56,527 nucleotides of DNA from Reclinomonas americana ATCC 50394 (lineage: Eukaryota). Below the pieces are notes generated by a model, which saw only the letters and a list, made by a program, of their open reading frames with translations, did no database searches and was not told the origin of the DNA. The translations under genes were made by a program, and so were the position numbers. The stretch lies in assembly GCA_048213135.1 (NCBI GenBank), contig AFZH01020179.1, forward strand, positions 1 through 56,527, given 5' to 3'. The stretch's first letter is position 1. Each line of letters starts with the position of its first letter. Positions 38,070 to 56,527 of this stretch are shown here, piece after piece.

Positions 38070-38076
38070 CACTCGT

Positions 38077-38127: not shown

Positions 38128-38393
38128 GATCCCGATGTTCCCCAGCACCGAACAAATGCCCCTCCCGCGCGAGCGGGTTAGTACATTGGCGCCTATCGGT
38201 CCGATGCGTGGCCGCATTAGCCGGCCGGCCGCCCGGTCAACCACAACCGCTATCGCCGCCCGGTCGCCCCATTCAGCTTATCAGCCGGCGGACACACGCA
38301 ATTCCGCCTTTGCGAGAGCGCCGTCGCCCTTTATCGGCATACTTGTCTCGCTCGTCTTGATTGGTCATGATCCCTTCCGGGGGTAGGGCGAGA

Positions 38394-39881
38394 ATGTCGA
38401 AAGAAATCGTTGATGCCGCGCGCGTGAGCGGCGATTTGACCAACATCTTTTGTCTGGGGCCGTTCGCGAAGCGCGTGAGCTTCAGCGCCCAGCAGACGAG
38501 AGCGCTAAACCTAGTCTGGGCCCTCAACGAACAGAACGAGTTCAGTTCTGGCAACAGCGTGGCGGTCATTGGCGCGGGGGTCGCCGGAGTCACGGCCGCG
38601 GCGGCCTTCATCGCCTATGGATGCAAGGTCGATCTTTTCGAGGCTGCGCGGCGATCGATGCATCGGCAAAGGAAGACCGACCACCGGATGGTCCATCCGA
38701 CCATCAATCTCTGGCCCTTCCAGGAACCGTCCCTGACCGCCGATGGTCCCTTCCTGGAATGGCACGCGGCCAAGTGCGACGAGATTATCACCAACCTGTC
38801 GGACCAGTACGACCGATTGAAGGGCGACAACCGGCTGCTTGAGGACACCACGGTCACGGACATCTATCCGGTGGCCACCAAACTGCTCGCCTTGAACACT
38901 TCCAACGACGCCCAGGGCGAACAGACCTACGATCTGGTGCTGCTGGCGGTGGGGTTTGGCCACGAATATCCCGGCGAGGATTTCGAACACACGGACTACT
39001 GGCTGCCGGATGGCCTGGACCAGATCCGAAACGAGCCGAAGCGCGCCAAGACCGACGTCATCATCAGCGGCTGCGGCGACGGCGGCCTGATCGACGCCTT
39101 GCGGGTGGTGCACAGCAAGTTCGATCGCGGTCGTCTAGTCTTCTCGACCGCCTCGGCGCTGGTTGGCACCGAAATCGAGGAGAGCATCCGAAGAGGCGAG
39201 CGGGCCGCGCGGATCGCTAATGACGCGTCTGGCCTGGCCGCAGTCTATGAGGCGGCGGCTGAGGCGCTGGTGACCAAGCCCGAATATGCGACGTTGGATC
39301 AAAAGCTTCGCGCCTCCTTGATCCGACCGCCAGTCTTTCTGGTCGATAAATTCCTGAGCGCGCCATACTCGTTGTGGTCTGCGCCGATCCATAAACTGAT
39401 GATCGCTCACGCCCGGCGCTGTGGCTTCATCATTTTCTACAAGAGCGATGTGTCACGCCAAACAGACACGGATCGTATCAGGGCTGGTGACCGGTCGTTC
39501 GCCGCTGAGCCCGCCTCCAAGGTGGTGATCCGGCACGGCGCCAAGCCGAAGTTCGAACGCCTGATCGGGGATGCGGCGATCGCCGAGCTTGAGACGCGAA
39601 TGAAGGTGTTCGCCGATTTCCATGCCGATCGAAAGTGGCCCGACGACTACCCGCTTCCGCCAGGCGTGGCCCGTTATGAGATCGGGACGCCGGCCTTCAT
39701 GGAAAGCAAGCGAAAGCTGGCCAAGCGGGCGCTCAACGCGATCTCTCCCGACGCGGACCTGTCTCCTCGCGGCGCGGGCTTCGTCGTTCAGTGGGAAGAC
39801 GAAATTCCGCCCGACGCGCCCAAGGCTCTGTTCCGGGTAAAGGTCGAAAATGAACTCGTGCCGCCGGCGTTTGGCCTATGA
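38394..39881 (+). CDS. FAD/NAD(P)-binding oxidoreductase (FMO-like, resembling defence-effector type)
   Basis: QQTRALNL, VAVIGAGVAG and second dinucleotide motif ISGCGDGGLID. Confidence 0.7.
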   Translation: MSKEIVDAARVSGDLTNIFCLGPFAKRVSFSAQQTRALNLVWALNEQNEFSSGNSVAVIGAGVAGVTAAAAFIAYGCKVDLFEAARRSMHRQRKTDHRMVHPTINLWPFQEPSLTADGPFLEWHAAKCDEIITNLSDQYDRLKGDNRLLEDTTVTDIYPVATKLLALNTSNDAQGEQTYDLVLLAVGFGHEYPGEDFEHTDYWLPDGLDQIRNEPKRAKTDVIISGCGDGGLIDALRVVHSKFDRGRLVFSTASALVGTEIEESIRRGERAARIANDASGLAAVYEAAAEALVTKPEYATLDQKLRASLIRPPVFLVDKFLSAPYSLWSAPIHKLMIAHARRCGFIIFYKSDVSRQTDTDRIRAGDRSFAAEPASKVVIRHGAKPKFERLIGDAAIAELETRMKVFADFHADRKWPDDYPLPPGVARYEIGTPAFMESKRKLAKRALNAISPDADLSPRGAGFVVQWEDEIPPDAPKALFRVKVENELVPPAFGL

Positions 39882-40696
39882 AGCGACGGGTCTCTCTCCA
39901 GATTGGCCAGGCGCTGCGAACCCGCTCGGGCGTGGGCCAATGTCGCGTGGGCGCTGTGGTGCTCGACAAGGATGGCCGAGCCCTGGCCTTGACCGCGCGA
40001 CATCCGCTCTGGGCCGATCCTGAAGCGACGGTGTTGGACGCAGCGTCCGGTCAGGCGATTGGCGCGCGCCTTGAGCTGTCGCCGGCGGCGCTGACGGACG
40101 CAGCGTCGCCGCCATTCCATACGACGATCGGCGCGGTGCTGCTCGACGGCGACATCGACTATACCGAGGCACTGACGACACCGGCCGCCGGTGCCTACGC
40201 CACGGTTGAGGACCTGCGAGACAAGACCATTGTCAGCGTCGGTGCGGGTGATGCGGCCAGCGGCGTCGTCGTGGGCGTTGGAAGCGTCCGTTTCCTGGAT
40301 CCCTTCAGCGACAATCGCGTGAGGATGTCGGACGCAATCGAAATTCGCGTCGACTGCGGCGATCCGTTCCAGCGCGGCGAGGCCGGGTTGCTCTTCGTCG
40401 ACCAACTCGGCGCCGCCGTGGGCCTGCTCATCTCATCGGGCAAGCCAGGCCACGGCTACTTGGCGCCCTTGGCCAAGTTGCTGACGATCAACGGCCTGAA
40501 GTTCGCTGGCGACAGCGCCTTGCCCCTGTCCCTGGATAACGGTGGCGCCGACTTCGTTCTTTTGCTCGAAGCCCAGTTAGATCGGCTAGGCGAGACGAGC
40601 GCCGTCATGCGGCGAGCGCTCGAAGCCGAACCCAGCATGCACAGGGATCCGAGCGGTCAGCGGGTTCCGGAAAAACTCATGGCCCTTCTGGACTGA
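39878..40696 (+). CDS. Trypsin-like (S1) fold protein, probably catalytically inactive
   Basis: LTARH His motif is present, but GEAG replaces GDSG. ATGA overlap with the upstream gene. Confidence 0.55.
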   Translation: MKRRVSLQIGQALRTRSGVGQCRVGAVVLDKDGRALALTARHPLWADPEATVLDAASGQAIGARLELSPAALTDAASPPFHTTIGAVLLDGDIDYTEALTTPAAGAYATVEDLRDKTIVSVGAGDAASGVVVGVGSVRFLDPFSDNRVRMSDAIEIRVDCGDPFQRGEAGLLFVDQLGAAVGLLISSGKPGHGYLAPLAKLLTINGLKFAGDSALPLSLDNGGADFVLLLEAQLDRLGETSAVMRRALEAEPSMHRDPSGQRVPEKLMALLD

Positions 40697-40700
40697 CGCG

Positions 40701-43250
40701 ATGACCCTGGAGCCAGACGAGCAGGAGCGCGTAGCGCGAAAGATCTTGAGCTTGGTTGATCTGAGCCGGGATCTTGAACGGAATTTCGACGACAGCAGCT
40801 TTGCTAAGAACGGCGGCGAAATCATCTATGTCGTCGATGAAAACATCTTCGAGATGTTCCTCCGTCCCCATCGCCATCACGAGGCGGTCGAGACCTTCTA
40901 CGGTGAGGTCTGGGGTTCGGGGGGGAGCGCGGATCCAAGTTGGCGCCGGTTCGAGACGCAGGCTGCGATGATCGCCGCGGAGTTCCTGCTCTCCGGCGCC
41001 CTCCCTGGCGCCCGTGATGGAGTGGTCTACGTAACCGAACCGCATCGGTGGGAGCTCGCCGACCGGCTGGAAGTCGTGACCGGCGAGTTGCGGGGGCAGA
41101 TCGAGCAAGATCGCAGCCGCGTCGCCGAGGAGCTGCGCCGCAAGTTGGCGGTGTTCAGCCCAGGCGAGGTGGACAAGGAGACGCGATCAAGCCTGGCCGA
41201 TGCAACCCTGGCCGGCGACATGGCTAAGCTAGCGGCGGCGCAAACCCCACCGGCATTGCTGGAGCAGATGCGCTTGGCGCGCGGGGCTGCGGCCGTGCTG
41301 GCGGCCTCGGAACTTACCGAGCCGCTGGATCAGCTCCGAAGGCTCGTCTCCCAACCGCTGCGACGCCAGGTTCACTCCCTGCAGGTCGAGTTTCGCCCCA
41401 GCGAGCGCGACGTCAAGGCGATCGAGGAGGAGGCGGCCGGTTGGTTTGCCCTGCTGGTCGAGGAACTCAAGCAGGTCGGTCACCAGTCCCGGCAGCGCGC
41501 CAAGCGCGAGGAGGCGGGCCGGTCGCTTTGGAACGATGCGCGGTCGATCGCCTATCTGCGGTGGGTCTCAAGGCGACTGAGCGCCAATCAGCGCCTGGTG
41601 TTCGTCACCGGTGACCCGGTTCTTTTCGACGCCTATCGACGCTGGCATTCCAACCCGGAGGCAAAGCCTGGGTCATCGACCAAGCCCTCGCCGTCCAACG
41701 AGCCGTTCTTCATGAGGCGAGCGGTTCAGTTCAGTCCGATCTTCAATCCCAACGATATCGGCGGCGATCTCAGCCGCGGCCTCGACGGCGCCAGCGAGCG
41801 CGCCGTCCTGTTCTCGCTGATCCAGCAGGCGGTCGAAGCGACGCTGGTGTCGTTCAGTCTTGTCCAGGCTCAAGCCGTAGCCAACGCGTCCGACGGCGTG
41901 TTCAGCCGTCATAGAGAGCGGTTGGCGCTCAAGCTCGTCGAGCATGTGAGGGTGTTGAGCGATCCGGAGCTGTCGACCTTGCGCCAGCTCATTCAAAGCG
42001 ACCGCGTCGCCGAGCAGGGTCAGAAGCTCGATGAGATCCGCGACAATTGGCAGGAGTTGCACCGGCTGGCCATAGGCGCGTCCTACGAACTGATCATGCC
42101 GCGAATGAACGAGAAGGAGATCCGCGCCTTGGCGCCGGCGATCAACGCCGCCGCGCACGACAACGGCGCGGCCCTACAGGCTTATGCGGCGGAGATCATC
42201 GACAAGATCGTCAACGAGAGTCTGCACTTCTTTCTGCCCTTGGCTGAAACCATCATCGCCGGCGGCGCAGCTTCGGGCCACCCGCAGCGCTGGCCCAAAC
42301 GGCTCAATCTCGCGCTGCAACTCGACGATGAATCCCTGCGTGGTCAGCTCGGCCCCACCCAGCGCAACCTGCCGCCAGAGATGATCTTCGCGATCGCGGC
42401 CAAGCGCAGCCTCGAGCTGCAGGACGTGAACAATGCGGAACGGTTCTCGAGCCTGGCTGTCCGGGCCGACGACAGCGCCCGCATCCGTGATGGCGGCCTG
42501 CCGGGTTTTGCTTCCGAATTGCGCTACCTGAGCGCTGTCGCGCAAAGGTATCTGATCGCGACGGTGCGCGAGCATCTTGTCGGCAACGCGTCAGGCGAGC
42601 CTGATGCGCTCGCCATTATGCGCAGCATCGATCAGGTCAAGCTGACTTATGGCCGATCAGCTCAGCAAATCCACGCCTGCCTTTCCACCCATTTCTCATG
42701 GAACGACAGGCCGACGGCCGAGGACGCGAAGGGCCACCGCATGCGCTATGTGCGTGCGTTGTCCGAACGCGCGGCCCTAAACCTGTTCATGGCCACAAGC
42801 TTGGGACTTTCCGAGCCGCTGGCCGGGGACCAGATCCAGTCCGACGCACTCGCCTACCTTGACTTAGCACGAGGCGACCTGAAGCTCGCCGTCAACGAAA
42901 TGGACCGTATTGGCGAGGCAGATCCGATGTTGGAGGCTGTCAGCGAACAACTCATCCCCAACATCGCCGCGGCCGAGGTCCTGCGTTGCCTGCTGATCAG
43001 GGGCGAAGACTACCGCTTCGACACCTCCACCCGCGCGCAACAGCGGGCCATAGGGCGCTTCGCCATGGCTCAGAAGACGCCCCACCCACTCCTGGCCGCG
43101 GAACTCGAGGCCTTCTTCTTCCTGGCGGGCTGGCAACCGACAGATTTCAGACCGTGGGGGGAGAATGAGCGAATGAACGCTCAGGTCGCCAAGGTGCGCC
43201 TGCCGCTTGATCGGACATTGCTGAAGCGGATTCGCAGCGAGATCATCTGA
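40701..43250 (+). CDS. Large hypothetical protein with split PIN-like motifs and helical C-terminus
   Basis: YVVDEN, NDARSIAYL, VFVTGD acidic motifs. Confidence 0.6.
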   Translation: MTLEPDEQERVARKILSLVDLSRDLERNFDDSSFAKNGGEIIYVVDENIFEMFLRPHRHHEAVETFYGEVWGSGGSADPSWRRFETQAAMIAAEFLLSGALPGARDGVVYVTEPHRWELADRLEVVTGELRGQIEQDRSRVAEELRRKLAVFSPGEVDKETRSSLADATLAGDMAKLAAAQTPPALLEQMRLARGAAAVLAASELTEPLDQLRRLVSQPLRRQVHSLQVEFRPSERDVKAIEEEAAGWFALLVEELKQVGHQSRQRAKREEAGRSLWNDARSIAYLRWVSRRLSANQRLVFVTGDPVLFDAYRRWHSNPEAKPGSSTKPSPSNEPFFMRRAVQFSPIFNPNDIGGDLSRGLDGASERAVLFSLIQQAVEATLVSFSLVQAQAVANASDGVFSRHRERLALKLVEHVRVLSDPELSTLRQLIQSDRVAEQGQKLDEIRDNWQELHRLAIGASYELIMPRMNEKEIRALAPAINAAAHDNGAALQAYAAEIIDKIVNESLHFFLPLAETIIAGGAASGHPQRWPKRLNLALQLDDESLRGQLGPTQRNLPPEMIFAIAAKRSLELQDVNNAERFSSLAVRADDSARIRDGGLPGFASELRYLSAVAQRYLIATVREHLVGNASGEPDALAIMRSIDQVKLTYGRSAQQIHACLSTHFSWNDRPTAEDAKGHRMRYVRALSERAALNLFMATSLGLSEPLAGDQIQSDALAYLDLARGDLKLAVNEMDRIGEADPMLEAVSEQLIPNIAAAEVLRCLLIRGEDYRFDTSTRAQQRAIGRFAMAQKTPHPLLAAELEAFFFLAGWQPTDFRPWGENERMNAQVAKVRLPLDRTLLKRIRSEII

Positions 43251-43546
43251 AATGAACGCCTCGGATCTTGATCAAGAGCGGTCTTCAACTGCCGCCACCA
43301 AATACAAACGAATGCGTTGACGCTAGACGTTGATGCTCACCATGATTGCCGCGACATGAAGCTGCCCGCAGAAGGATGCCCTCTATGTTTTGGCGCATCG
43401 ACATGGCTTCCGCGCCGGGGTGAGACAGGACGTCAACGACCATGGCAGACGACAAGGGAATCCGCCTCGGACATTACGCTCGCGACCGCAACCTCGAGAA
43501 GGATCCGGTCAAGGCACCCGGGGGCGTCCGGTAAAACGCGCCGACG

Positions 43547-43589
43547 AATGTCCGCTTGCTGGAGCTGACCCAACGGCAGCTCGTGGCGC
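43547..43589 (+). repeat. Conserved intergenic bipartite motif, copy 1
   Basis: AATGTCCGCTTGCTGGAGCTGACCC-AACGGCAGCTCGTGGCGC. Confidence 0.75.
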
Positions 43590-43659: not shown

Positions 43660-46600
43660 TTAGACTTTTTTGGTGGCTCTCTTCTTCGGGCTAGGCTTTT
43701 TTACTGCACCGGGAGGCTTGCGCGGAGCACCTTTGGCGGTCGGCTTGCCGCCGGCGACGACGGCTGCGGTCTTCTGGATATCTTGGTTGAGGTCAAGCAC
43801 CATGAAGGTGACCTCAACCTCTTCTTCATCGCGCAAGTAGCGCGCGATGAAGCCTGGGGGCTGGTTGCCTTCAAGGGGAAGGCGTTGGTGACCTTGATAG
43901 GTGAATTTGGGTGGGGCGTGGGAGCGAGCGATATCTTCTAGGGTCGTCACGATCGAACCGATGTCGGGAACGATCGCGTATGTAAGGTGCGCGAAAACGC
44001 GGCAGGTCGAATAGCCGACCAGCTTCTGGAAGTGTTCCCTTAGCAGCCTCACCTGTGTGGAACTGGTCACCGGCCAACGGCAAACGATAGCCTCGACAAC
44101 GGCCACGTCGGTCGTTGCATAGCGGATCGTAAGGTCCCGCTCTCCCATATTGCCGGCCGCCGAGAAGCCACCTTTAGATTGGTCGCCGACTTGCCAGCCA
44201 AGGTCATGAACGCGAGTCTGCAACAGCTCCCGAAGGATTACGCTGACGTTGTCTTCCCAGTTGGGAAGGCCAAAGTCGCGGAGCGCCGAACGCAGGCCAA
44301 CAAGACTCGCCGCGCCGTGCGAGAGATAATCCCGAACCAATTCGCCCGAGGTCTTGCGACCGAGGATCTTGGCTTGCCGCTCGACCCCCGACACGCGGAA
44401 ATCGTTCAGCGCGGCCTTCACCGGTCCAATCTGGTCTTCGTTGAAGATGAAGGTTGCAGCCGCGTCGTAGCGAGCATTGGTGTTGATATGTTCGAGCGCA
44501 GCAGCCAGGGCAGGATCGCTGGCATGGGTCTGACGCCCCGCTTGAATCACCGCCAAGGCTTGGCGACCGTTGCCGAGTCGGTTCATCGCCACGGCCCGAT
44601 AGGCGAGTTGCCGCGGGGACGCGGTGATCGCGTCGCCACGATCAAGGGTTTGGATCGCATCCCCGGCCTCACCTACGGCTAATTGTAGAAGGGCCAGGTT
44701 CTCGACTATGGTCTCGCGAACTGACGGGCCGACGACGTCATTCAGAGCTTTGGCCTCATCGATGAGCGCTCGCGCCTCACCGACACTTTCCTCGCCTAAC
44801 CGCTCAAAAAGGTCCGTCCCGAGTAACAGGCTAATTCGGCTAGCCAGATGGTTAAGTCGATAGGCGGGGATATGCGGACGTTGCCTAGCCAGGTTGCCGA
44901 AGAGGCGCGCGGCTTCTCCCATTCCAGACTTGTTGGGTTGATCATAGGCAAGCAGGGCCTTATGGAACGAGAGGCTGTCCTCGGCTTCATTGACTTCGAA
45001 CGGTTTTAGCCCTTCAGGAGGCCGCAGCGCCGCCAAGGCCGTGGGATCGCGCCGCACCCAGGCAAGACGGACCTCCACCTTGAAGTCCTGAAGCAAGGTC
45101 GCTGAGCGACTACGGCGACGCCCCGCCTTGGAATGGTTCAGAAAGTCCTCGGCCTGTGTGGCCAGCCCAGCCGAGACGAGCGCTTCGATCCGCGCATGGT
45201 CGCCGTCAAACCCTTCCTCGCCGATGGCATCGGGTTCGATCTGTTCGATGCGTTTAATTATCGCCGACTTCAGCCCTGGTGGAACGAGGGTCGAAAGTTG
45301 AGCGAGGATATAGGGCTCCTCGACCCTAAAGATGGCGGCGAGGACGTCGTCTCGATCCGGCGGCGCCAGCACATTAAGGACCATCGACAGATCCTTCGCC
45401 AAGGGATGATCGTCCGGTCCGAACGGCGAACTGGTTTCGAGATGGGGGGAGAAGGCTCTTATACGGCCCAGCACAGGATTGTAGTCGCGCCCGCTGTCGA
45501 TGGCTTGTTGCAGGGCTTTGATCAGGTCTGGCGAAGCAGGTTTCGGCACGCCCGCGATCGCCCGACAAAGCACGCGAATGTGCGCACGCAGCGCACGCGC
45601 GGCTTGAGACTCTAACCATAGCGGGCTCTGAGAGCCGCCATGCATAAGGGCTTTCAAATCAAGCGGTTTGAGGAAGAGCGCCCGTGTGGCTTTGTCCGCC
45701 TTGCTGGCTTGATCGAGGGCGGCGCAAGCGCGCGGCGTCAGACGGCGTGTCGAGATCGTCAGATCGTCAGGCTTCAGCGCCAAAGCATAGGCGCGAACAA
45801 GCGCGCTCGCGTCATTCAGCACCGCGGCCGGGCCAATAGACAGGAGGTCCAGCGCCGTATCCAAGATCCATGGCGCCGAGCCGGGGACGATAAGCGCCTG
45901 GATCAAATGGTTGAGTATTGCCGAGAGGGTCTCGGCGGCCTGGCCTTGTAAGGCTTCGCGCAGGATCGGGAGATACGGCGATGGTGCCACGAGGTTTTGC
46001 ACAACCTCAAGGCGGGTCGGGCGGTGCAGGGCCGCCATCAGATCCGCGATTTCGCTTGCCCCATTCTGCGGCGGCTTCGCGGCAGCAAGCTGACGGGCCA
46101 GCGTCTCAGCGCAGTCGGAGAAGATCGCGATCTTGCCCGATCGTTCATCCTCCTCGTAGGACTTGCGGGCCCAGCCGCCTGGATTGTCCTCCCGTCGCAT
46201 GACCACGAGCCAAGCGGCCAAGGGAGCCGTTTTCGAATGAACGATCAGGTCGGCAAGCAGGATCGGATGACGGTTCACGTGCCAAAGCACCAGCACCAGC
46301 AGCGTGGGGTGCTCGACGGCTTGCTCGATCAGTTTCCAGCCGGCGTCGCGATGAGGGCCGTTGAATGGCTCATTGGCGAGATCGTCCAGAAGAAGGCGAA
46401 CGAAATCGTATAGCGGCCCATCGATCACGCTCTCAACGAGCAGGTCGTCCATCGGCGGGTCGCCCAGCCAACGGGCTCGCTCAACCAAGGTGGCGGGCAC
46501 GGGTGGCAGCGTCCAGCCCTGGCCCGATCCCCGAGCGTGCAGGGCTATCGTTTGGGAAAGCTCCGCGTGGAATGTCGACCAGTCGGCGGCCGTAGCCGAC

Positions 46601-47565: not shown

Positions 47566-47727
47566 AACGGGGCGGCTAGTTGGGGGCGCACGTCAATCGA
47601 TGGCCTGGAGGTCAGTCGACGAAATCCGGACAATGCAGGATTGTGCCTAGTGCAACGATCCGCAGCACGATAGCTTGCGGCCAAGCTGTCGCTTCATCGC
47701 ATGAGTACGCTCCCCGAGGAGGGATCC

Positions 47728-48171: not shown

Positions 48172-48172
48172 C

Positions 48173-48658
48173 GTGGACGAGGACCGCAAGCGCGACTGGG
48201 ATGTTCGACTGGGATTTGTGGCTCCAGTCCTGACGCTTCTGAGCGTCGTGATCGGTGTCTGGCAGTTCAACGCCGGGGAGGAAAACCGGCGGCGCGAAGG
48301 TGTTGAGAGCGCCCGCCTCAAGGATGATATCGAATTTCGACGAAAGCTGTGGCTCGAGAAGTTGGAGCGTTACCGCAGCCTTTCGGAGTTGGCCGGGAAG
48401 ATCGTCTCGATGCCCAAGGGCAAGGCGCGCGATGCCGCCGTCCAGGATTTCAAGGGTCAGTATTGGGGCGCGATGATCCTCGTCGAGGACAAGGCCGTCG
48501 AGGAAGCCATGGTCGGCTTCTATCTCGAGCTGGAGGACGAGCGGACAGGGTGGAGCGTTGATCCCGATCGGCTCAAGGCAAGAGCGGACATCCTGATCAA
48601 AGCCTGCCGGCTGTCGATCGAGGCCGGCTCGTCCGCCGCTTTGAGTGCCGGCCGATGA
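48173..48658 (+). CDS. Single-TM hypothetical protein
   Basis: Hydrophobic LGFVAPVLTLLSVVIGVWQF segment, translationally coupled to neighbours. Confidence 0.65.
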   Translation: MDEDRKRDWDVRLGFVAPVLTLLSVVIGVWQFNAGEENRRREGVESARLKDDIEFRRKLWLEKLERYRSLSELAGKIVSMPKGKARDAAVQDFKGQYWGAMILVEDKAVEEAMVGFYLELEDERTGWSVDPDRLKARADILIKACRLSIEAGSSAALSAGR

Positions 48659-49611
48659 TCCGCGCCATCGTGCTGGCCTGGCTGCTGCCGCTTCTGGGGG
48701 CGGCGCCCGTCGCCGCAGCCGAGCGCGACGTCTACTTCGTGGCGATCGGCTCATCCAATTACGTCGATCCCGGCGACGCGACGCTTCGAGGCTTTGGCCG
48801 TATCCTGGGCGCGAACAAGAGCGCCAGGGCGGTTGGCGATCTGCTGACCCAGAGGGGGGGCCGCGCGGGCGTCGTGCTGACCGCGCCCAAGGATGGATAC
48901 GTCAGCGCGCAGGATATGAGACGCGCGTTGGACGAGATCGGAAAGATCCTCGCCAAGGACAGGCCCAAGTCGCCTTTCCTGATCGCATACATCGCCAGTC
49001 ACGGCGTGTCCGAGGGGTTCGCCTGGTCCCATTTTTCGATACCGGGCGACGTGGTCTTCCGCCGCGCCGAGAACGGATTGACCATGGATCAGATGATGCA
49101 GGGCGGCGTCAGCGCCGCCGAACTGGTCGACGTCTTGGACAAGCTCAAGGTCCCGTACCTGTTGCTTCTCGACAGCTGCTACGAGGGCAAGGCGGCGGTG
49201 CTTGAAAGTCCGGTCCTGTCGCCGGCCGCCTCGCAATCCTTGGCAGGCATCGGCGCAGTCCTGCGTCAGATCAACATGTTCGAACAGGCGAGCCCCGTCG
49301 TCTATTCGACGACCCCGGGCCAATTGGTCTCAACCGTGCCAGATCCGCGCCAGGGGAACGCCGACGCCGTCGCTCCGATCGCGCGCAGACTGTTGATCGT
49401 GTTCGCTCGGCCCGATCATCCAAGGACGCTGGGAGCCCTGCTGAAGGCGGTTGTCGATCCGGGCCTGGACACGCTCACCGGGCCACCCGTCACGCACGCC
49501 AAGGCCGCGGGGTTCTGGAACGACACCCTCTTCAAGGCACCCGACGCGACCGCGCGGGTCGATGTGCGACAAGGCACGGCGGATAAGCCGAGCGTCTGCT
49601 GCGGCGGATAG
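48655..49611 (+). CDS. Caspase-family (C14) peptidase with signal peptide
   Basis: VAIGSSNY, ASHG and LLDSC catalytic dyad motifs. Confidence 0.75.
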   Translation: MIRAIVLAWLLPLLGAAPVAAAERDVYFVAIGSSNYVDPGDATLRGFGRILGANKSARAVGDLLTQRGGRAGVVLTAPKDGYVSAQDMRRALDEIGKILAKDRPKSPFLIAYIASHGVSEGFAWSHFSIPGDVVFRRAENGLTMDQMMQGGVSAAELVDVLDKLKVPYLLLLDSCYEGKAAVLESPVLSPAASQSLAGIGAVLRQINMFEQASPVVYSTTPGQLVSTVPDPRQGNADAVAPIARRLLIVFARPDHPRTLGALLKAVVDPGLDTLTGPPVTHAKAAGFWNDTLFKAPDATARVDVRQGTADKPSVCCGG

Positions 49612-49647: not shown

Positions 49648-49686
49648 AATGTCCCGTTTCCAGAGGTGCGCCAAGGTCGGCTCCTG
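49648..49686 (+). repeat. Conserved intergenic bipartite motif, copy 3, left part (interrupted by IS110; right part GGCGC resumes at 51034)
   Basis: AATGTCCCGTTTCCAGAGGTGCGCC-AAGGTCGGCTCCT|GGCGCGG after removing the IS. Confidence 0.75.
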
Positions 49687-49747
49687 ATGCCGTGGACGGC
49701 TCCCCACCCAGGTCGCAGGCTATGTGCGGCCGTAATGGAGGAGCGCC

Positions 49748-50776
49748 ATGGAAGAGGTGGTCACGGTGGGATTGGACATCGCCAAGTCGGTGTTTCGGGT
49801 CCACGGAGTCGATGCTGCGGGCCATGTGGTCGTGCAGCGCAAGCTCACGCGAGCGAAGCTTATCCCGTTCTTTGAGAAGCTGCCGCGCTGTCGGGTGGGG
49901 ATTGAGGCCTGCGCCACAGCACATCACTGGGGTCGCCGGCTGACTGAGCTGGGCCACGAGGTGAAGCTGATGCCGCCTTCCTACGTGAAGCCCTATGTGA
50001 AGCGGCAGAAGAACGACGCGGCTGATGCCGAGGCGATTTGCGAAGCTGTGACCCGGCCGACGATGCGTTTTGTCGAGGTGAAGGCCCCCGAGCAGCAGAG
50101 CGTGCTGGTGATCCATCGAACTCGGATGACCCTGATGCGTCACCGGATCGAGCTTTCCAACACGATCCGGGCTCACCTAGCCGAGTTTGGCCTGGTGGCT
50201 CCGATCGGCCGGATGGGGCTGCAGAGCCTGGTAGAGATCATTCGCGACGAGACCGATGAGCGGGTGCCGGTGAGCGCGCGGATCTGCCTGAAGTTGCTGG
50301 CTGACCAACTCGACCTGGTGAACCGCCAGGCGCTGGAGACCGATCGACTGACCCTAGCGAGCGCGCGGGCGAGCGATGTGGGCCGCCGGCTGATGGCCGT
50401 TCCCGGCATCGGCCCCGTGCTCGCTAGCGCAATCGTGGCCAGCGTGCCGGATCCACACGCCTTCAAGTCTGGTCGAAACCTATCGGCCTGGATCGGCCTC
50501 GTGCCCAAGCAAAACTCAAGCGGCGGTAAGGAGCGGCTCGGCGGCATCACCAAGCAGGGCAACAGATATCTGCGCCAGCTGTTGGTGGTCGGCGCGCTCG
50601 CCGTTATCCGCTACGCCGAACGACACGGGTCGAGGCGACCCTGGCTCCTGCAGCTGATGGCGCGGCGGACCACGAAGGTCGCCGCGGTGGCGCTGGCCAA
50701 CAAGAACGCCCGCATGATCTGGGCGATCATGACCAGCGGCGAGGCCTATCGAGAGCCGCAGCTGCAAGCCGCGTAG
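49748..50776 (+). CDS. IS110-family transposase/recombinase
   Basis: GLDIAK, IEAC, KNDAADA (DEDD) and SSGGK motifs. Confidence 0.95.
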   Translation: MEEVVTVGLDIAKSVFRVHGVDAAGHVVVQRKLTRAKLIPFFEKLPRCRVGIEACATAHHWGRRLTELGHEVKLMPPSYVKPYVKRQKNDAADAEAICEAVTRPTMRFVEVKAPEQQSVLVIHRTRMTLMRHRIELSNTIRAHLAEFGLVAPIGRMGLQSLVEIIRDETDERVPVSARICLKLLADQLDLVNRQALETDRLTLASARASDVGRRLMAVPGIGPVLASAIVASVPDPHAFKSGRNLSAWIGLVPKQNSSGGKERLGGITKQGNRYLRQLLVVGALAVIRYAERHGSRRPWLLQLMARRTTKVAAVALANKNARMIWAIMTSGEAYREPQLQAA

Positions 50777-50829
50777 AGATCAGGCGCCAACGGCGTCGGA
50801 CCAGTTTGGGAAGGGCGACGAAGGAGTGA

Positions 50830-51000
50830 TGTGATCCGGTCGAACCGGGAAGCGGGAAAACCCAACGCGCCATCGTGCTTCAAAGCACGTGCTTTTGGTC
50901 GGGACCTAGCTTCGCGGAGGGCATCATGGCCAGCGGCCCATGCGCCGCACCAACAGGTCGAAGACATGGCCGCACCGACCAGCTGTCACAGAACTCTCAG
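50830..51000 (+). ncRNA. Predicted seek/bridge RNA of the IS1111-type element (ends approximate)
   Basis: Four 7-nt segments match the target and donor junctions (50866-72, 50891-97, 50920-26, 50962-68), with internal hairpins between each pair. Confidence 0.6.
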
Positions 51001-51285
51001 ATCAACCTTGCCAACGGGGAGCCGTCCAGACATGGCGCGGATCGCCCGTCGAGCCGTACCCGTCGCGCGATGGGGCAAAAGGGAGAGCCGCCTAACCTGT
51101 GACGGACCAAGTCAGAGCGTAGGCGTCGCTCGGCCCAGCGGCTTCGTCGAGTTGAGGGTGTGCCTCCCAGTTTGCCAGTGTCGGCTCGTCGCTAAGACCC
51201 GTTTTGCTGAGAACAGCAGCCAACGCTGCGTTGTTGGGGTGGCAGGTCACTGCGAGCTGGCCCCGGGGACGCTCCCCGCCGGCGC

Positions 51286-52446
51286 CTAGAGATCGATGCT
51301 GACAGGCCCTTCCGTAACGGTCGCGCCCATGGCCTTAAGCCGCGCCACCACGTCGCCGATGTCGTGCTCGGCCGGCGTGTAGGTCTTGTGCAGCGCATCG
51401 CGGTACTTGCGGTGCGTCTGCTGGATGTGATCGACCGAATAGGTCAGGTGCAGGGTGAAGTTTGGAGATGCGGCCCGAACCTCGGCGATCATTTCCAGCG
51501 TCGCGCGGTCGGGGTTTCCGAACTTGCCGTCGCCTGAAGCGACGTAGTGACGAGCCGGCAGTCGCGCGAAGAAGTCCTTGTCGACGTTGCGAATGCTGCC
51601 GTGGTGCGGCAGCTTCAGGATGTCGAGCGCGAGCGCGCCGTGGGGCGACAAAAGTCCGGCCGCTTCGAGGCCCTTGAGAATCTTGTCACCCCGGGCGTCG
51701 CCGGTGAGCAACGTCTTGCGGCCTTGCCAGTCAACCAGGGCGACGATGCTGGAAAGGTTGGGCACGGACTTGTCCGCATAGGCGGCGAAGGCCTTGCGCG
51801 CGTCCGCCGACTGGGTGGCCTCCCACTTGGCCCATTCGGCGCGCAGCTTGTCGATGTCATCCTGCAGCGGACCCAGGATGACGAACTTCGCCTGGCCGAC
51901 CGAGAAGCCCATGGGGGGATGGGCTGAGCGGAAGATGTCGCCGCTGGGGGTGGCGTCGAGATTGATCGGGATCCCCAACCCCTTGGCCAATGTGCGCAGG
52001 GCCGCGCCATTTTCGATGCTGGCGAAGATCTCCGCCGCCTCGCCCATGTCATCGGCTCCTTGGCTAGCCGAGAGGCTGGCGAAGGCGCTGGCGGGGGCGC
52101 CCGCGGCGTGGCCCGAGCCCTTGGCCAGACCTTGGAAGCTGTTGTGGATCAGCTTTTCGATGCGAACCGCGCGCGGCTGATGAGCATCGACCGAGGCCCT
52201 TATGCTTGTGAAGAGGTCGACGAGACCGACCACATGGTCGTCATCGACGTGACTGACCATGACCGCGTCGAGCACCAGCGGTCCGCCGGCGGGCTTGAGC
52301 GACTGAAGCTTGGCCTTGAGCGCGCCGGCATAGACGCCGCTGGGTCCCCCATCGATCAGCATCCGCCGAACCGCGCCTTGATCCGGAATGGTCAGCAGCA
52401 GGCTGTCGCCGAACTTGGCCGGCAGGGCTTCGAACCTCATGCTCAT
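51286..52446 (-). CDS. MBL-fold metallo-hydrolase (ComEC/Rec2-like, putative nuclease)
   Basis: GDSLLL, LIDGG, SHVDDDH, N.SSIV, LLTGD, KLPHHGS motifs. ATGA overlap with the S8 stop. Confidence 0.85.
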   Translation of the reverse strand: MSMRFEALPAKFGDSLLLTIPDQGAVRRMLIDGGPSGVYAGALKAKLQSLKPAGGPLVLDAVMVSHVDDDHVVGLVDLFTSIRASVDAHQPRAVRIEKLIHNSFQGLAKGSGHAAGAPASAFASLSASQGADDMGEAAEIFASIENGAALRTLAKGLGIPINLDATPSGDIFRSAHPPMGFSVGQAKFVILGPLQDDIDKLRAEWAKWEATQSADARKAFAAYADKSVPNLSSIVALVDWQGRKTLLTGDARGDKILKGLEAAGLLSPHGALALDILKLPHHGSIRNVDKDFFARLPARHYVASGDGKFGNPDRATLEMIAEVRAASPNFTLHLTYSVDHIQQTHRKYRDALHKTYTPAEHDIGDVVARLKAMGATVTEGPVSIDL

Positions 52447-54290
52447 CTCCATTGCAGCGCACGAAGCGCGTCGACCAGTCCCGCGCCCTGAAAGGCGCGT
52501 TCGCGCCGCAGGTCCGTGGCCGTGGCCATCAGGGTGTTCTTGATCTCGAAAGGGTCGCCCACCAGTTCGATGCGACGGGCCATCAGCAGAGCGGCCACGC
52601 CGCTGACATGCGGTGCGGCCATGCTCGTGCCGTCTAGCTGACCTTGCTTCTCGTCGGGCAGGGGGCCGTCGATCTTTTCGCCCGGGGCCACGAGGTCGGG
52701 TTTCATACGGCCATCGCCGGTCGGTCCGCGCGAGGAGAAAAAGCTCACCCCATAAGTCATCGGGCGCTCGCGATGGGTCGCGCCGACCGTGATCACCGAC
52801 TCCGCATTGCCTGGATCCATAATCGAGGCCGAAGCATAGCCCTCGTAGCTGCGCTGCTCGCTGAGCAGGAAGCTCTGCCAGCCTTCGTTACCGGCGGCTG
52901 CGACCACCACCACGCCGTTGTCCACCAGCGTATCGCAAGCCACGCAAACCGGCGTCTGACCGCAGGCCCAGTTGCGCACATCGTGCTTCATGCCGATGCT
53001 CAGATTGACGCCATGGACCACGCGATAGCGGTTGCGGTTGTTGAGCCAGGCGATGAACTCCAAGGCGCCGATGACGCCGAACTCGGTCTCATCGCGCGTG
53101 TCGCCCAACACCCTGAGGTCCAGGAGCCGCAGATCCGGGCAAACCCCGACCAAGTCAGCTTCCGGCCAATGCCCGGCCAGAACGCCGGCGACGTGGGTGC
53201 CATGCGGTTCGCGCGGCCGTGTCTCGGGGGCGATGCGCAGCAGCGGTTCCAGCAGCGTCCAGCTGAAGGGCCGTTCCTGCTGGGCGTCCCGGCGCATCTG
53301 CTCCAGAAGCTCTGCGGCGGTCAGGTCCGGCATGGCGTCGTGGCTGGCGTTGGCGGCTGGCGGAGCGTCTTGTCGCCACCGGGCGATATCGGCTTCCAGC
53401 GCTTGGAAGGGCGCACTGCTCGGCTCCAGGAGGATGTCGTAGCTGGTCAGGCGTCGCAGGCGCGAGAAGTCGTAGGCGCCGACGATGCGGTGGGCGTCGA
53501 GGTTTTCCGGATCGCGAAAGGAAGGATGGGTGGCGTCTATCCCGGAGTCGACGACTGCCCAGAGCAGGTCGCGACAGCCGGCCTCGAACACTCGGCGCGC
53601 GGCGTCAGCCTTGATGGTGCGGATGGAGGCGGCGCCGAGCGGTTGGGCTTGCCGGTTCAGCGTGGCGCGGCGAAAGACCGGGCGCGGCCTCTCGCGCGCT
53701 TGGGTGGTGGTGCGCCATCCCAGCTCGGAGAATATCACGGCGGCGACGCCATCGGCCCGACGCATGGCCACGGCGGCCTGGCCCGCCGTGGCCACTGGCC
53801 GGTCGAAATGACGCGCGTGCAGGATCAAGGTGGCCAGGGCGCTGAGGCGTTCTTGGCGATCGGGCGCGTGCTCGCGCGCCTCATGGCGTCGATTGCTCTC
53901 CAGGGGCTCGATCCGCTCGAGCACTTCGGCGGCGGCGTCGGTGGTGAGAACGTTGATCTCGAGTCCGATCAGGGGGGCAAGCGCGAACAAGAGTTCGTCG
54001 AAAGCCAGATTGGCGGCCACGAACCCCTGCAGCGGCGAGACATGCGCGGCCGGTCGCGCGCTGTCGGGTTCTCGATAGTGGCGCAGGTTCTCGGCTAGAG
54101 CCATGGCCGCGCGGGGCGGCGTGGTGGTCTCGGCCGGCGACAAGAGCAGAGAGACCCGATCCTCGGGTTGTGCGGCGAACGCCGCCCACACGTCGGTCAG
54201 GATCGAGACGTCATGGACCAGCCGCAACCCCGAACGTGCGTCATGCAGCAGGCGCTCGACAAGGGAGCGGGCGACAACGGCGTCAGACAA
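52443..54290 (-). CDS. S8 subtilisin-like serine peptidase, no signal peptide
   Basis: VVDSGID, HGTHVAG, AAGN, GTSMAAPHVSG triad motifs. Confidence 0.92.
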   Translation of the reverse strand: MSDAVVARSLVERLLHDARSGLRLVHDVSILTDVWAAFAAQPEDRVSLLLSPAETTTPPRAAMALAENLRHYREPDSARPAAHVSPLQGFVAANLAFDELLFALAPLIGLEINVLTTDAAAEVLERIEPLESNRRHEAREHAPDRQERLSALATLILHARHFDRPVATAGQAAVAMRRADGVAAVIFSELGWRTTTQARERPRPVFRRATLNRQAQPLGAASIRTIKADAARRVFEAGCRDLLWAVVDSGIDATHPSFRDPENLDAHRIVGAYDFSRLRRLTSYDILLEPSSAPFQALEADIARWRQDAPPAANASHDAMPDLTAAELLEQMRRDAQQERPFSWTLLEPLLRIAPETRPREPHGTHVAGVLAGHWPEADLVGVCPDLRLLDLRVLGDTRDETEFGVIGALEFIAWLNNRNRYRVVHGVNLSIGMKHDVRNWACGQTPVCVACDTLVDNGVVVVAAAGNEGWQSFLLSEQRSYEGYASASIMDPGNAESVITVGATHRERPMTYGVSFFSSRGPTGDGRMKPDLVAPGEKIDGPLPDEKQGQLDGTSMAAPHVSGVAALLMARRIELVGDPFEIKNTLMATATDLRRERAFQGAGLVDALRALQWR

Positions 54291-54305
54291 GCAAAACGCT
54301 CCGCA

Positions 54306-55190
54306 TCAAGGCAAGCCCAGAACATAGGCGATGGCTGGAGCGTTAACGCCGTAGTTGGTGTTGGCGCCAACCAGGGTGTGCACGTTGATGCCCACCAAGG
54401 CGCCAGTGGTGACGTCGAAAATGCCGCCGCCCGACATCTTGTTGTAGGAGTTGATGCGGTGAGCAAACACGCCGTGGCTTTGTGGTGAGCCCGAATTGAC
54501 GATCGCTCCGATCGTGGCGCGCAAGCTCACCACGTTGGTGACCAAGGCGCCATTGGGGAGCCGAACGCCAAAGACCTTGATGTCTTGCGGCGGCGGATTT
54601 TGCAGCTCGACCGGGTCTGGAGCGCCGACCAGGGCCGCGTTGCTGTTTGGCGTAGGGGCGGCCAAGGCCGTGGGCGCCACGCCTTGGGGGAGGGTGAAGC
54701 CAGGAGGCGGATGAGGCAGGGGCATCAGGGCCACGTCCAGGCCCGGCGCGGTCTTGATCGGCGCGCCAGTGATGCGCAGCCCGGGAAAATGATCGAGCTG
54801 CGCCAGGGTGAGAAACTGGCCGTTGCGCCCGACCGCGTCGAAGAACACCCAGGCGTCCGGATGACTGACATGCTGTGCGGCCGCGCCCGGCGCTATCAAG
54901 ACGCTGGCCACGTGCCCGGCGGTGAGCATCAGGCCGTTGGCCAAGAGGACCCCCGAGCCCGCCAGCGCCCACGCGCCGGTCTGAGGCTCGCGGACGGCAA
55001 AGATGAGAGCCGACGTGGCCGCTGTATGGCCCGCGGCGGTCGACAAGAACGGCCCAATCGGAAAGTGGCTCGTCTGAATAGGGTGCAAGGGGGCCGGGCC
55101 CAGTATGCCGTTGGCCCAGACCAAGGCTGGCGCGGCTTCGGGGGTGACGACCGCCGCAAGAACCTGATTGACGGTCTCCTGGTCGCTCAT
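54306..55190 (-). CDS. Trypsin-like serine peptidase
   Basis: GSGVLL..LTAGHV, DVAL, MSGGGIF triad. ATGA overlap with the upstream gene. Confidence 0.75.
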   Translation of the reverse strand: MSDQETVNQVLAAVVTPEAAPALVWANGILGPAPLHPIQTSHFPIGPFLSTAAGHTAATSALIFAVREPQTGAWALAGSGVLLANGLMLTAGHVASVLIAPGAAAQHVSHPDAWVFFDAVGRNGQFLTLAQLDHFPGLRITGAPIKTAPGLDVALMPLPHPPPGFTLPQGVAPTALAAPTPNSNAALVGAPDPVELQNPPPQDIKVFGVRLPNGALVTNVVSLRATIGAIVNSGSPQSHGVFAHRINSYNKMSGGGIFDVTTGALVGINVHTLVGANTNYGVNAPAIAYVLGLP

Positions 55191-56401
55191 TTGAGCTCGT
55201 ATTCGGCCTTCTTGGCCGCGTCGTAGGCTTCGATCAGGGTTTTCGCGCTGGCGGCGGCGTTGGCCACGGCGTCGGCTGCGTCGCTCCACTTGATTTTGTC
55301 GTTGGCGAAATCGACGAGCTTGCTGTTGGCCCTCTCCAGGTCGTTGACCGCATCCAGAACGCTGGGCGGATCAAGCTGGGCGTCGACAGCGCGGATAGCC
55401 TCGATGACGCCTTGCTCCTGCTTTTCGAGCTTGGCGTAGTAGTCGATCCGTCCAGTGCTGGTCGCCGCTGCGCTGGCGTAGTTGTAGGCGGCCAGGCGCG
55501 CTCCGGCATAGCGGGCGTAGGCGATGTTGGCGCTGGCCCAGCGCGCGTAGATGAGCTTGCGGTCCCAGGAAGTCAGCAACCCCTTGCTGCGGCCAAGGCA
55601 GGGCCAAATCGGCCGCTCGATGGTCTCGTAGTCGAAGCCGCCGGGCGTTCTGGGCCGGCTTGTCGCGCAAAGAGCCTGGGCCGTGGCGTCGCTCTTCTTG
55701 AGGGCGGCGATCATCACCGAGGAGCGCGCCTCGACGTCGCTGGTGGCCTCGGCTTGGCGGACATAGGCCTTGGCGCGATCGACCCGGACCTTTTCCTCGG
55801 CCAGCAGCGAGGCCTGGACCAGGAACTTGTAGGCCGCGCCGATCAGGCTGAGCACCGGGACGGCGTCGCCGAGCGTCGACTCGTTTTGGCTCGCCAGCGC
55901 TTTGGCGAACTCGGGGTCGATCAGTTCGCCGACGTCGGCCAGGCATTTGTTGCGGAAGACCGACGCGGCTTCGGGCGCGCTCACCCCGGGCGGGGCCTTG
56001 CGCGCGAAGCTTCCAAAGGCCCCGCTGAGCGTCTTTTCCGGCGCCTTGGACACCTTGCCCAGCGCCTTGCCATAGCCGCTCAACGCCGAGAGCCTGGCTT
56101 GATCAAAGCGCGTGTCCGCGGCCGGATCGCAAACCAGCACAGCGAAATCGGCGCGCATCTTGGCCTCATCGATCAGGTCGGCGACGGGCGCGGCGGCCAG
56201 TGACAGGTTGAGGGCGCCGTTAAGGATCACCCGCCGGCGTCCGTCGCGATAGGCGGCGGCCTGGAGGTCGCCGGCAGCAGACAGGCTGGTCACTGCGTCG
56301 GTATAGGCCTTGACGTTGGTCTCAAGGCTGGGGCCCTGCCCAAAGCCGGCGCAGGCCGAAAGCACCACGCTGGACATAACAATGGCGACGCTACGCTTCA
56401 T
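55187..56401 (-). CDS. Helical lipoprotein of unknown function
   Basis: MKRSVAIVMSSVVLSAC lipobox, CAGGAG RBS. Confidence 0.75.
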   Translation of the reverse strand: MKRSVAIVMSSVVLSACAGFGQGPSLETNVKAYTDAVTSLSAAGDLQAAAYRDGRRRVILNGALNLSLAAAPVADLIDEAKMRADFAVLVCDPAADTRFDQARLSALSGYGKALGKVSKAPEKTLSGAFGSFARKAPPGVSAPEAASVFRNKCLADVGELIDPEFAKALASQNESTLGDAVPVLSLIGAAYKFLVQASLLAEEKVRVDRAKAYVRQAEATSDVEARSSVMIAALKKSDATAQALCATSRPRTPGGFDYETIERPIWPCLGRSKGLLTSWDRKLIYARWASANIAYARYAGARLAAYNYASAAATSTGRIDYYAKLEKQEQGVIEAIRAVDAQLDPPSVLDAVNDLERANSKLVDFANDKIKWSDAADAVANAAASAKTLIEAYDAAKKAEYELK

Positions 56402-56509
56402 GACCAACTCCTGCTTATGGGGCGAACTGGAACGAAACGCAGGCATAAGTAGAGCAGAGCTCGGCCATAAGCGCCAGTGCTTTTCAGTGGGCTGCTAACA
56501 AGGGGTCCC

Positions 56510-56527
56510 AACGGCCGCTTCTGGCGC
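56510..56527 (+). repeat. Conserved intergenic motif, copy 4 (right block only, at window edge)
   Basis: AACGGCCGCTTCTGGCGC. The upstream AATGTC block is not conserved. Confidence 0.65.

Follow-up and report, generated by a model that had tools for sequence, protein, structure and literature searches.

Can genes be collected in ordered arrays at sites other than those of integrons, the textbook platform for gathering, storing and reshuffling genes? The question is raised by contig AFZH01020179.1 of the Reclinomonas americana ATCC 50394 assembly GCA_048213135.1, of which positions 1 to 56,527 of the forward strand were analysed; this whole stretch of 56,527 nucleotides is referred to here as the window. 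Its right-hand part is an array of five copies of a short intergenic motif enclosing four gene modules. We consider it probable that a gene-cassette system, integron-like and yet not an integron, uses this motif for recombination.

An array of direct sites in the window

The initial annotation, made from the sequence of the window, had described a bipartite motif at three places, with its right block recurring at the very end, and had taken the intervals for mobile cassettes. The description of the array was confirmed. Three matches at ≤2 mismatches were found at the proposed positions (S1, S2 and S3 in Table 1) versus 0.00 expected from 100 shuffles, the starts of the two blocks are 25 nt apart in all three full copies, and the right block is matched again in the last bases of the window (S4). 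Every array copy is intergenic and on the + strand, and each of the four intervals holds one co-directional gene set, with the sets alternating +, -, +, -. Searched alone in the whole window, the right block gave five matches at ≤2 mismatches versus 0.42 expected; four are the array copies, and the fifth, at 8220, is weak, lies within a gene and is the sole match in the first 38 kb. The left block alone matched only the three full array copies, and the copy at 56510 is therefore devoid of it.

The proposed start of the array at 38160 coincides with a fifth site, S0, which is split by an insertion sequence (IS) and has its TGGCGC core at 38187-38192, and module 1 is thereby bounded by cores on both sides. 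S3 is likewise interrupted, with junctions reading ...CTCCTG / IS / TGGCGC, and after in-silico removal of the IS it reads ...CTCC-TG-GCGC. The array may continue past S4, beyond the window end at 56527. A tRNA-derived att site was considered and rejected, since the window contains no tRNA or tmRNA according to ARAGORN and a by-eye likeness to the 5' half of a tRNA failed. Rfam gave no match to a known RNA family in the window at gathering scores.

Exchange of gene blocks at the TGGCGC core

It had also been proposed that homologous modules in other genomes should begin and end at the motif, and in four independent block comparisons the synteny breakpoints do fall on it, at TGGCGC (loci outside the window are given by our L numbers, genomes by G numbers). 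In the first comparison, L049:1340-8471 and L070:9176-16307 are 99.7% identical over 7.1 kb, and no other stretch in the surrounding 40 kb is alike at this level. At the left end of this block the motif bodies differ and identity begins at TGGCGC, and at the right end identity spans the last motif and stops 2 nt past TGGCGC. The second comparison concerns a 4.6-kb block found in L048:2057-6634, L072:9013-13587 and G135:C46:25583-30156 with 99-99.8% identity, which in all three genomes ends right after TGGCGC and is followed by three unrelated continuations. The third is a one-gene cassette of 1.1 kb (L052:9964-11080 and L077:9800-10916, 87% identity) which starts directly after the TGGCGC of a preceding, unrelated motif and ends at its own TGGCGC; an unusual motif variant is kept in both genomes and the neighbouring units are unrelated. 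The fourth is an MFS-SDR-LysR cassette running from L044:17393 to L045:1801, which matches L055:11962-16278 at 82-89%; motifs bound it in either genome, and its neighbours there are unrelated. These borders imply that a cassette begins immediately 3' of one TGGCGC and extends to the next, and that the site body of ~40 nt travels at the 3' end of the upstream cassette, which is the same logic as that of attC.

The units so delimited differ widely in content. L050 holds four consecutive units of one open reading frame (ORF) and one motif each, 0.57-1.1 kb in length, which encode a cupin, a DUF938 methyltransferase, an esterase and one protein without a family, and other units are multi-gene, use both strands and carry their own regulators (LysR, TetR, AraC). 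Direct repeats with gene blocks between them would also be produced by tandem accretion, where the modules are decayed islands, each once with its own integrase, inserted in the same att site and leaving direct att repeats behind, similar to cis-mobilizable elements (CIMEs), and one array does adjoin a conjugation gene, TrbI (L044:9613-10779). We regard this as very improbable, given that units with a single ORF go down to 0.5-1.1 kb, that neither the window modules nor those of the annotated arrays contain integrase remnants, and that the same short cassette stands alone in another genome (the L052/L077 pair). Its mechanism would moreover barely differ from that of cassette exchange, with the same sites and the same chemistry.

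Some of the cargo deserves separate mention. The 7.1-kb block common to two species-level genomes contains a groES-groEL pair and a usg-like gene (L049:4006-6043), and a chaperonin copy thus located seems to travel as cassette cargo. An RNA-repair pair, RtcB and a protein with an RF-1 domain, is encoded between two sites in a Caulobacter genome (L054:1390-3167). The last site of the G001 array is directly followed by the gene of a 2031-aa protein (L045:5959-12054) which combines DUF4011, a helicase, an MTES_1575 nuclease, DUF3320 and Schlafen AlbA_2, and which has the look of a defence gene.

Distribution and polarity of the motif

A loosened pattern of 24 fixed bases was searched in a collection of species-representative genomes and found at 13 loci, in six Caulobacter and in Phenylobacterium, Brevundimonas, a Caulobacteraceae metagenome-assembled genome (MAG), Ancylobacter, Alsobacter, Bosea and an unclassified MAG. 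These loci are alike over ~45-55 nt only, and their flanks are unrelated. Five of the genomes gave 13, 1, 13, 4 and 10 matches at ≤3 mismatches, and the reversed pattern gave 0. With the same tolerance the pattern is present in 80 of 201 Caulobacteraceae genomes (reversed-pattern control, 0 of 201), and the motif also occurs in some Hyphomicrobiales. The number of copies per genome ranges from 0 to 22, and 121 of the 201 genomes have none.

The copies have a strict polarity. Among the adjacent pattern matches listed that are ≤30 kb apart, 56 of 59 pairs are co-oriented (hand count, whole genomes; binomial p 1e-13). A profile built from 41 copies picked up additional, weaker copies, and its matches are co-oriented in 72 of 73 adjacent pairs across 17 fetched regions; these regions were selected for holding clusters, and the whole-genome count is the less biased figure. 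In an Alsobacter MAG all ten matches, distributed over three clusters, are on one strand. Adjacent profile matches in the 17 regions are 52 bp to 20.8 kb apart, the median being 2.9 kb. A tandem pair of motifs, with starts 52 nt apart and 12 nt between them, is found at L049:3801-3906 and again in the homologous block at L070:13741-13846. The GC content at third codon positions (GC3) is ~0.68-0.80 in array ORFs versus 0.85-0.95 in neighbouring core ORFs.

Scatter over the genome in the manner of repetitive extragenic palindromic (REP) sequences had been named in the initial annotation as an observation that would speak against recombination sites, and what was found instead are few, clustered and co-oriented copies in stretches of low GC3. 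The motif might nevertheless be an intergenic repeat of the type of REP sequences or bacterial interspersed mosaic elements (BIMEs), or a safe-harbour sequence with a host function, the array look being a by-product. Many copies do lie between convergent, ordinary metabolic genes, and three different mobile elements target the motif. We find this decidedly unlikely in view of the low and patchy copy numbers given above, the lack of a hairpin and the strict polarity, and because blocks are exchanged at one 6-bp point with the site body moving with the upstream block; homologous recombination would need more than the six shared bases to account for such exchange. Furthermore, no gene of the REP-associated tyrosine transposase (RAYT) type was noticed, though no search aimed at RAYT was made.

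Anatomy of the site

In the position weight matrix alignment, 68 of the 72 distinct sites scoring ≥25 bits align gap-free, with the consensus cTG-AAYGTC-N3-TTY-CTGGAG-N5-CC-AA-S-GKC-N-GCT-N2-TGGCGC-N3-SC-N-GMC. One unit (AAYGTC ... T ... TGG.G) is present twice in direct orientation, at positions 1-18 and, with an offset of one base, at 26-43. The unit of ~18 nt, AAYGTC-N3-TTY-(C)TGG-N-G, thus starts twice, 25 nt apart, and this duplication explains the 25 bp between the block starts of the window motif. The second copy ends in the 6-bp core TGGCGC (positions 38-43), around which positions 29-34 (GKCNGC) and 47-52 (GCNGMC) form a dyad. On account of this dyad the core resembles a tyrosine-recombinase site of the 9-6-9 layout whose left arm is strong and whose right arm is weak. 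The site as a whole is an asymmetric element of ~55 bp that is defined by its sequence.

A conserved fold was looked for, and RNAalifold gave no consensus fold on either strand for the 68 aligned sites; the mean folding energy is -19.4 for the sites and -19.4 for shuffles, and the site ends AAYGTC and TGGCGC are not complementary. The lack of a conserved fold argues that the site is not an attC site, and an attC-like hairpin was rejected for want of consensus pairs and for a folding energy equal to that of shuffles. A coding motif, suggested by a 3-base rhythm of the variable positions, was likewise rejected: no consistent long open frame was present in six frames of 42 copies, and the ATG within AATGTC is ACG in 10 of the 42.

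In its first base the core is uniform within genomes and differs between lineages, being GGGCG in 10 of 10 sites of G041, G077 and G059 and TGG(C/G)G in 28 of 28 sites of G135 and G174. Such uniformity is what a homology-dependent overlap region would predict, and shared descent of the sites would predict it too. About 8 of the 68 sites carry a second conserved non-coding element of ~45 nt directly 3' of TGGCGC, e.g. at L048:6635-6690, at L077:5086-5150 and in L070 just below 9176; in L077 it fills an 'empty' interval of 112 bp between two sites. This element may represent either a longer right arm or the beginning of a cassette type that recurs.

A small recombinase gene linked to the sites

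An ORF of 208 aa located beside motif copies (L048:7647-8273) has Phage_integrase as its sole Pfam match and is 70% identical between Caulobacter and Ancylobacter. The residues R59, K87, R159, H182 and Y191 are invariant in 12 homologues and H156 is present in 11 of them; both the catalytic residues (R-K-H-R-H/W-Y) and the catalytic-domain fold of the tyrosine recombinase superfamily are found. The NCBIfam models for XerC, XerA, XerD and Fim-type invertases align to the catalytic part only, with scores far below their cut-offs: NF040815, the XerA/'integron integrase' model, gives 50.7 bits versus a cut-off of 220, and the match to NF007370 (tyrosine-type DNA invertase) is weak at E 6e-6 and 25.9 bits versus 221. 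A sequence search of solved structures with the protein gave no match. Foldseek with the AlphaFold model (predicted local distance difference test, pLDDT, 69) retrieved the catalytic domains of XerA, XerH, XerD and lambda Int with E 2e-5 to 6e-4. By sequence and predicted fold, the 208-aa recombinase is a catalytic domain only, without a core-binding (CB) domain.

Gene and site are closely linked. On the strand of the gene, a full site follows the stop codon at a distance of 21-100 bp in L048, L040, L058, L060, G174:C9, G071:C157, G095:C106 and G154:C2. On the other side, 60-120 nt separate the end of a site or of its right block from the start codon in 10 of 13 loci. Placed between two sites that point in its own direction, the recombinase gene looks like a cassette itself. 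The recombinase was matched, often as fragments, in 46 of the 201 family genomes, and the motif is present in 32 of these 46 versus 48 of the 155 genomes without a match (odds ratio 5.1, p 5e-6; phylogeny ignored).

Relatives are also found on plasmids, where tblastn matched 1378 records at E ≤ 1e-10, including proteins 60-72% identical in Bosea, Methylobacterium, Azospirillum, Sinorhizobium, Rhizobium, Agrobacterium, Cupriavidus, Pantoea and others. On the Bosea plasmid NZ_CP102773 (L084), co-oriented sites lie 3' of LysR and rsgA genes. An Asticcacaulis plasmid has the RNA-repair pair Hen1-Pnkp directly upstream of the small recombinase gene (L085:10703-14619). The linkage described above suggests that the 208-aa recombinase is likely the enzyme acting on the site.

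Insertion sequences directed at the core

Both interrupted sites of the window were opened at the core. The IS in S3 was matched by NF033542, the model of the IS110 family RNA-guided transposase, and has the features of the IS1111 group: a transposase gene (49748-50776), subterminal inverted repeats, a 3' non-coding region of ~260 nt and uniform flanks. Contigs from 4 of 4 public runs contain near-identical copies in other contexts, aligned from 49671/49676 to 51038/51039, which share site-derived flanks, namely 11-16 nt of the right block at the left end and TGGCGC(G) at the right end. In addition, one loose contig end reads a left half of the motif. According to PMC11187229, the IS1111 group is characterised by a DEDD transposase, by inverted repeats in subterminal position, by a long stretch of non-coding DNA downstream of tnp and by a sequence-specific target, and other members target attC sites and REPs, with ISKpn4 and ISPst6 among those that target attC.

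The IS at S0 is of another type. An IS3-family element in the window cuts off the 3' part of the recombinase gene of an IS91-type element, leaving a 5' fragment at 37491-38108 which matches Pfam Phage_int_SAM_4 and the first half of Phage_integrase; the full protein has 301 aa with CB and catalytic (CAT) domains. Over 181 aa the fragment shares 91% identity with L004:3526-4431, a gene immediately 5' of a Y2 (IS91) transposase, and this homology assigns it to the IS91-type element and not to the candidate cassette recombinase. The 301-aa family occurs in 21 of the 201 genomes with up to five matches per genome. The IS end followed by NN and TGGCGC and then by unrelated DNA is seen at 38185-38192 of the window and in L086, L087, L107, L091 and L100, and further IS91-type copies are flanked by NN-GGGCGC or another sequence. 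The opposite end abuts motif positions 1-37 in L004 and L120, the two copies in which it was readable. A sublineage with recombinases 73-80% identical has the flank ATGAGCC (L092, L094, L098, L109, L110), and the IS91-type lineages apparently differ in target.

Two unrelated IS types thus insert precisely into the core, mirroring those IS that target attC. That IS1111-type elements have specialised independently on attC and on the site described here points to cassette sites as a general niche of site-specific IS.

Modules and surroundings of the window array

Table 1. Sites, insertion sequences and gene modules of the window array
Feature	Positions	Strand	Evidence or remark
IS3-family element (OrfA HTH_Tnp_1, OrfB rve)	36072..37455	+	Pfam 1e-11, 2e-18
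Recombinase 5' fragment of IS91-family element, 193 of 301 codons	37491..38108	-	Pfam, homology
Terminal region of IS91-family element, ending ...GTTAGTAC	38109..38184		Homology with L004 and 17 other copies stops here
S0, right remnant (NN + TGGCGC core) of IS91-split motif	38185..38192	+	Left border of module 1
Module 1, three co-directional genes (38361-39881, 39878-40696, 40701-43250)	38193..43546	+	Pfam, PADLOC
S1, full motif (both blocks and TGGCGC core)	43547..43589	+	Profile 44.5 bits
Module 2, single 1196-aa gene	43660..47250	-	No Pfam, NCBIfam or PADLOC match
S2, full motif, core TGGCGT	47523..47565	+	Profile 42.4 bits
Module 3, two or three small ORFs (47580-48233, 48173-48658, 48655-49611)	47580..49611	+	ORF lists
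S3, left part, motif positions 1-39, ending ...CTCCTG	49648..49686	+	29.9 bits
IS1111-type (IS110-family) element in core of S3	49687..51032	+	NF033542, 2e-99; borders ambiguous by repeated TG
S3, right part, TGGCGC core	51033..51038	+	Sequence
Module 4, four co-directional genes	51286..56446	-	Pfam, PADLOC
S4, right block and core only, at window end	56510..56527	+	15.9 bits

Part of the cargo could be assigned to families. The first gene of module 1 encodes an FAD/NAD(P) oxidoreductase (Pfam Pyr_redox_2, 6e-15) that is LmuA-like (PADLOC LmuA, 6.7e-62), and the two following genes have no Pfam, NCBIfam or PADLOC family match. The 1196-aa protein of module 2 falls in hypothetical-protein clusters of the Atlas, with weak Mrr/NucS leads only, and the ORFs of module 3 gave no match in Pfam, NCBIfam or PADLOC. 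In module 4, the gene at 51286-52452 encodes a metallo-beta-lactamase (MBL) fold with matches to PADLOC LmuA (8.7e-44) and to the Avs1a and RTasMBL models, 52443-54290 a Peptidase_S8 (PADLOC subtilase, 6e-43) and 54306-55289 a Trypsin_2 (Pfam); no family was found in Pfam for 55187-56446. Of the gene labels in the initial annotation, those answering to the FAD/NAD(P) oxidoreductase, Trypsin_2, Peptidase_S8 and MBL fold were recovered, and 'PIN-like', 'caspase' and 'large nuclease' had no counterpart in Pfam, NCBIfam or PADLOC. The label of conflict or defence modules applies to the LmuA-like genes at 38361-39881 and 51286-52452 and to the subtilase at 52443-54290, and was not borne out for the remaining cargo; defence-like cargo is plausible, from these family matches, in two of the four modules (1 and 4).

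The left flank of the array has been rearranged, as indicated by two truncated genes beside the IS cluster: the C-terminal half of an AcrB-type RND pump (33320-34822) and a C39-peptidase ABC exporter reduced to its N-terminal part, which breaks off where the IS3-family element begins (34659-36032). Further upstream, the region 20258-31156 encodes a 1999-aa type I polyketide synthase (KS-AT-DH-KR-ACP), a luciferase-like monooxygenase and an MFS transporter, all unrelated to the array.

Proposed mechanism and points against it

The interpretation of the motif in the initial annotation as a recombination site of a system other than IntI/attC is supported by the breakpoints at the core, the absence of a conserved fold and the 208-aa recombinase with its catalytic domain only. 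One may envisage that the small recombinase binds the repeated unit of the site and that strand exchange takes place in or at TGGCGC. Two direct sites would recombine and release the cassette between them as a circle, and the reverse reaction would insert a circular cassette into any resident site. Excision and insertion between direct sites would lead to arrays in which all copies point one way. Cassettes would consist of one to several genes in either orientation, often with a regulator of their own, and the recombinase gene, placed directly behind a site, would itself be such a cassette. From the presence of the site, the four modules of the window would be mobile in the same manner. Within this picture the conservation of the motif, its clustering and polarity, the cassette borders, the linkage of recombinase gene and site and the insertion of IS at the core are observations; catalysis by the small recombinase, circular intermediates, the point of cleavage and the mobility of the four window modules are inferred.

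Several observations weigh against this reading. The left end of the 4.6-kb block is without a recognisable site, and a degenerate one was sought with no convincing result. No excision product, circle or empty site was observed; the public runs contained the IS and not the window array, the best of them having ≤0.10 of the sampled words and covering the IS only. The window modules have no close homologue found elsewhere: megablast of 38160-56527 versus plasmids matched 108 bases, all within the IS, the 1196-aa protein had no relative among the genome and metagenome contigs searched, and an 849-aa protein of the window has matches of 29-36% identity only, in two of the 201 family genomes, both of them motif-free. 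Nor did tblastn find a homologue of the small recombinase in the window, and the window array, being without a recombinase, is similar to a cluster of attC sites lacking integron integrases (CALIN). Co-orientation over tens of kb could also stem from a replication-polar element, and on the Bosea plasmid one inverted site lies directly 3' of the small recombinase gene (L084:20701-20751), where inversion rather than excision is possible.

The association of recombinase and motif is likewise imperfect. The motif is still carried by the 48 of 155 genomes without a recombinase match, 14 of the 46 recombinase-bearing genomes have no pattern match, and the co-occurrence test took no account of phylogeny. 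Two genomes, G003 and G124, have 13 and 8 pattern matches and no recombinase at E ≤ 1e-20. Homology among the recombinase genes often stops ~45 nt 5' of the start and a few nt past the stop, i.e. inside the flanking sites, and the gene may hence move or convert as a smaller unit.

Modules might instead be exchanged at the motif by another enzyme, be it the 301-aa IS91-type recombinase, host XerC/XerD or some other protein, with the small recombinase gene as a passenger or parasite of the site. The arrays of G003 and G124 are in keeping with this, as is homology among the small-recombinase genes that does not reach the flanking sites. The IS91-type element, furthermore, has a tyrosine recombinase with CB and CAT domains and joins DNA beside TGGCGC, and a remnant of that recombinase lies at the left edge of the window array. 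We consider such an enzyme unlikely all the same. The 301-aa recombinase is always accompanied by a Y2 transposase, shows the behaviour of a multi-copy IS and has other flanks such as ATGAGCC; the small recombinase gene lies behind a site in 10 of 13 loci and in front of one at at least eight places, and a recombinase gene between direct sites must use them if it is mobile at all.

The proposal that the small recombinase acts on the site can be extended to a broader one, namely that Alphaproteobacteria run a separate cassette system with a minimal, catalytic-domain-only recombinase, double-stranded, sequence-defined sites of ~55 bp that recombine at a 6-bp core, and the stockpiling and exchange of self-regulated, often multi-gene modules. 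Taken as one joint claim, which spans chromosomes, plasmids and conjugative elements, anti-phage modules, and a system so old and common that RNA-guided IS1111 and IS91 elements evolved into parasites of its site, we would give this proposal an even chance. In full-text literature searches the motif, Caulobacter cassette arrays and a cassette system with a catalytic-domain-only recombinase were undescribed. PMC8138268 ascribes CB and CAT domains to simple recombinases, and the phrase 'catalytic domain only' is not in its text; the supplementary datasets of that paper, which were outside the search, might list the family. The preprint 10.1101/2022.02.06.479319 describes integrons as entirely absent from Alphaproteobacteria and calls this intriguing.

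If the proposal is correct, cassette platforms have evolved more than once, and a route exists for defence and catabolic modules between the replicons of Caulobacter, rhizobia and methylotrophs. It would also provide a very small recombinase with a defined site of ~55 bp, which is directly testable, and array borders would become predictable, as an aid to finding new cargo genes.

Comparison with known systems

The arrays share individual traits with several known systems. FimB/FimE-type invertases are similar to the small recombinase in having about 200 aa and essentially only a catalytic domain. They act on inverted sites around one promoter segment, in contrast to the direct repeats around gene modules seen here, and the invertase model scores far below its cut-off. 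The internal resolution site of Tn4430, at which TnpI resolves the transposition cointegrates of one transposon, has a core site with extra direct copies of the binding motif on one side, reminiscent of the duplicated left arm of the present site; unlike the system proposed here, TnpI is not known to build cassette arrays. REP sequences and BIMEs occur as tens to hundreds of dispersed palindromic copies per genome, and are in that respect unlike the 0-22 clustered and hairpin-free copies per genome found here.

The pdif sites are 28-bp look-alikes of dif (XerC-6-XerD) that are used by the host XerCD and alternate in orientation around modules. As in the pdif (Xer) modules of Acinetobacter plasmids, short tyrosine-recombinase sites bound modules that recur in different contexts, but the present sites are ~55 bp, GC-rich, all direct and linked to a dedicated small recombinase.

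The closest parallels, and also the clearest differences, are with integrons. Like integrons and CALINs, the arrays consist of co-oriented sites between unrelated gene units, with the site at the 3' end of the unit and the crossover at its far edge; some arrays are without a recombinase gene, the cargo is in part defence-like, and IS1111-type elements have specialised on the site. IntI is composed of CB and CAT domains with an IntI-specific extra segment, whereas the recombinase here has 208 aa and neither a core-binding domain nor that insertion. No intI-like ORF was present among the window ORFs scanned, where the only recombinase fragment is that of the IS91-type element. The attC sites are imperfect palindromes conserved in structure, with R''/R' boxes (GTTRRRY), whereas the site described here is conserved in sequence and not in fold and has no GTTRRRY core. 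Integron attI and the Pc promoter adjoin a divergent integrase gene, and promoterless cassettes are expressed from this platform; here, the gene arrangement shows no attI/Pc platform divergent from the recombinase gene, which itself looks like a cassette, and the cassettes are often multi-gene, in either orientation and equipped with their own regulators. The host range, finally, sets the two apart, as the arrays described here are those of Alphaproteobacteria.

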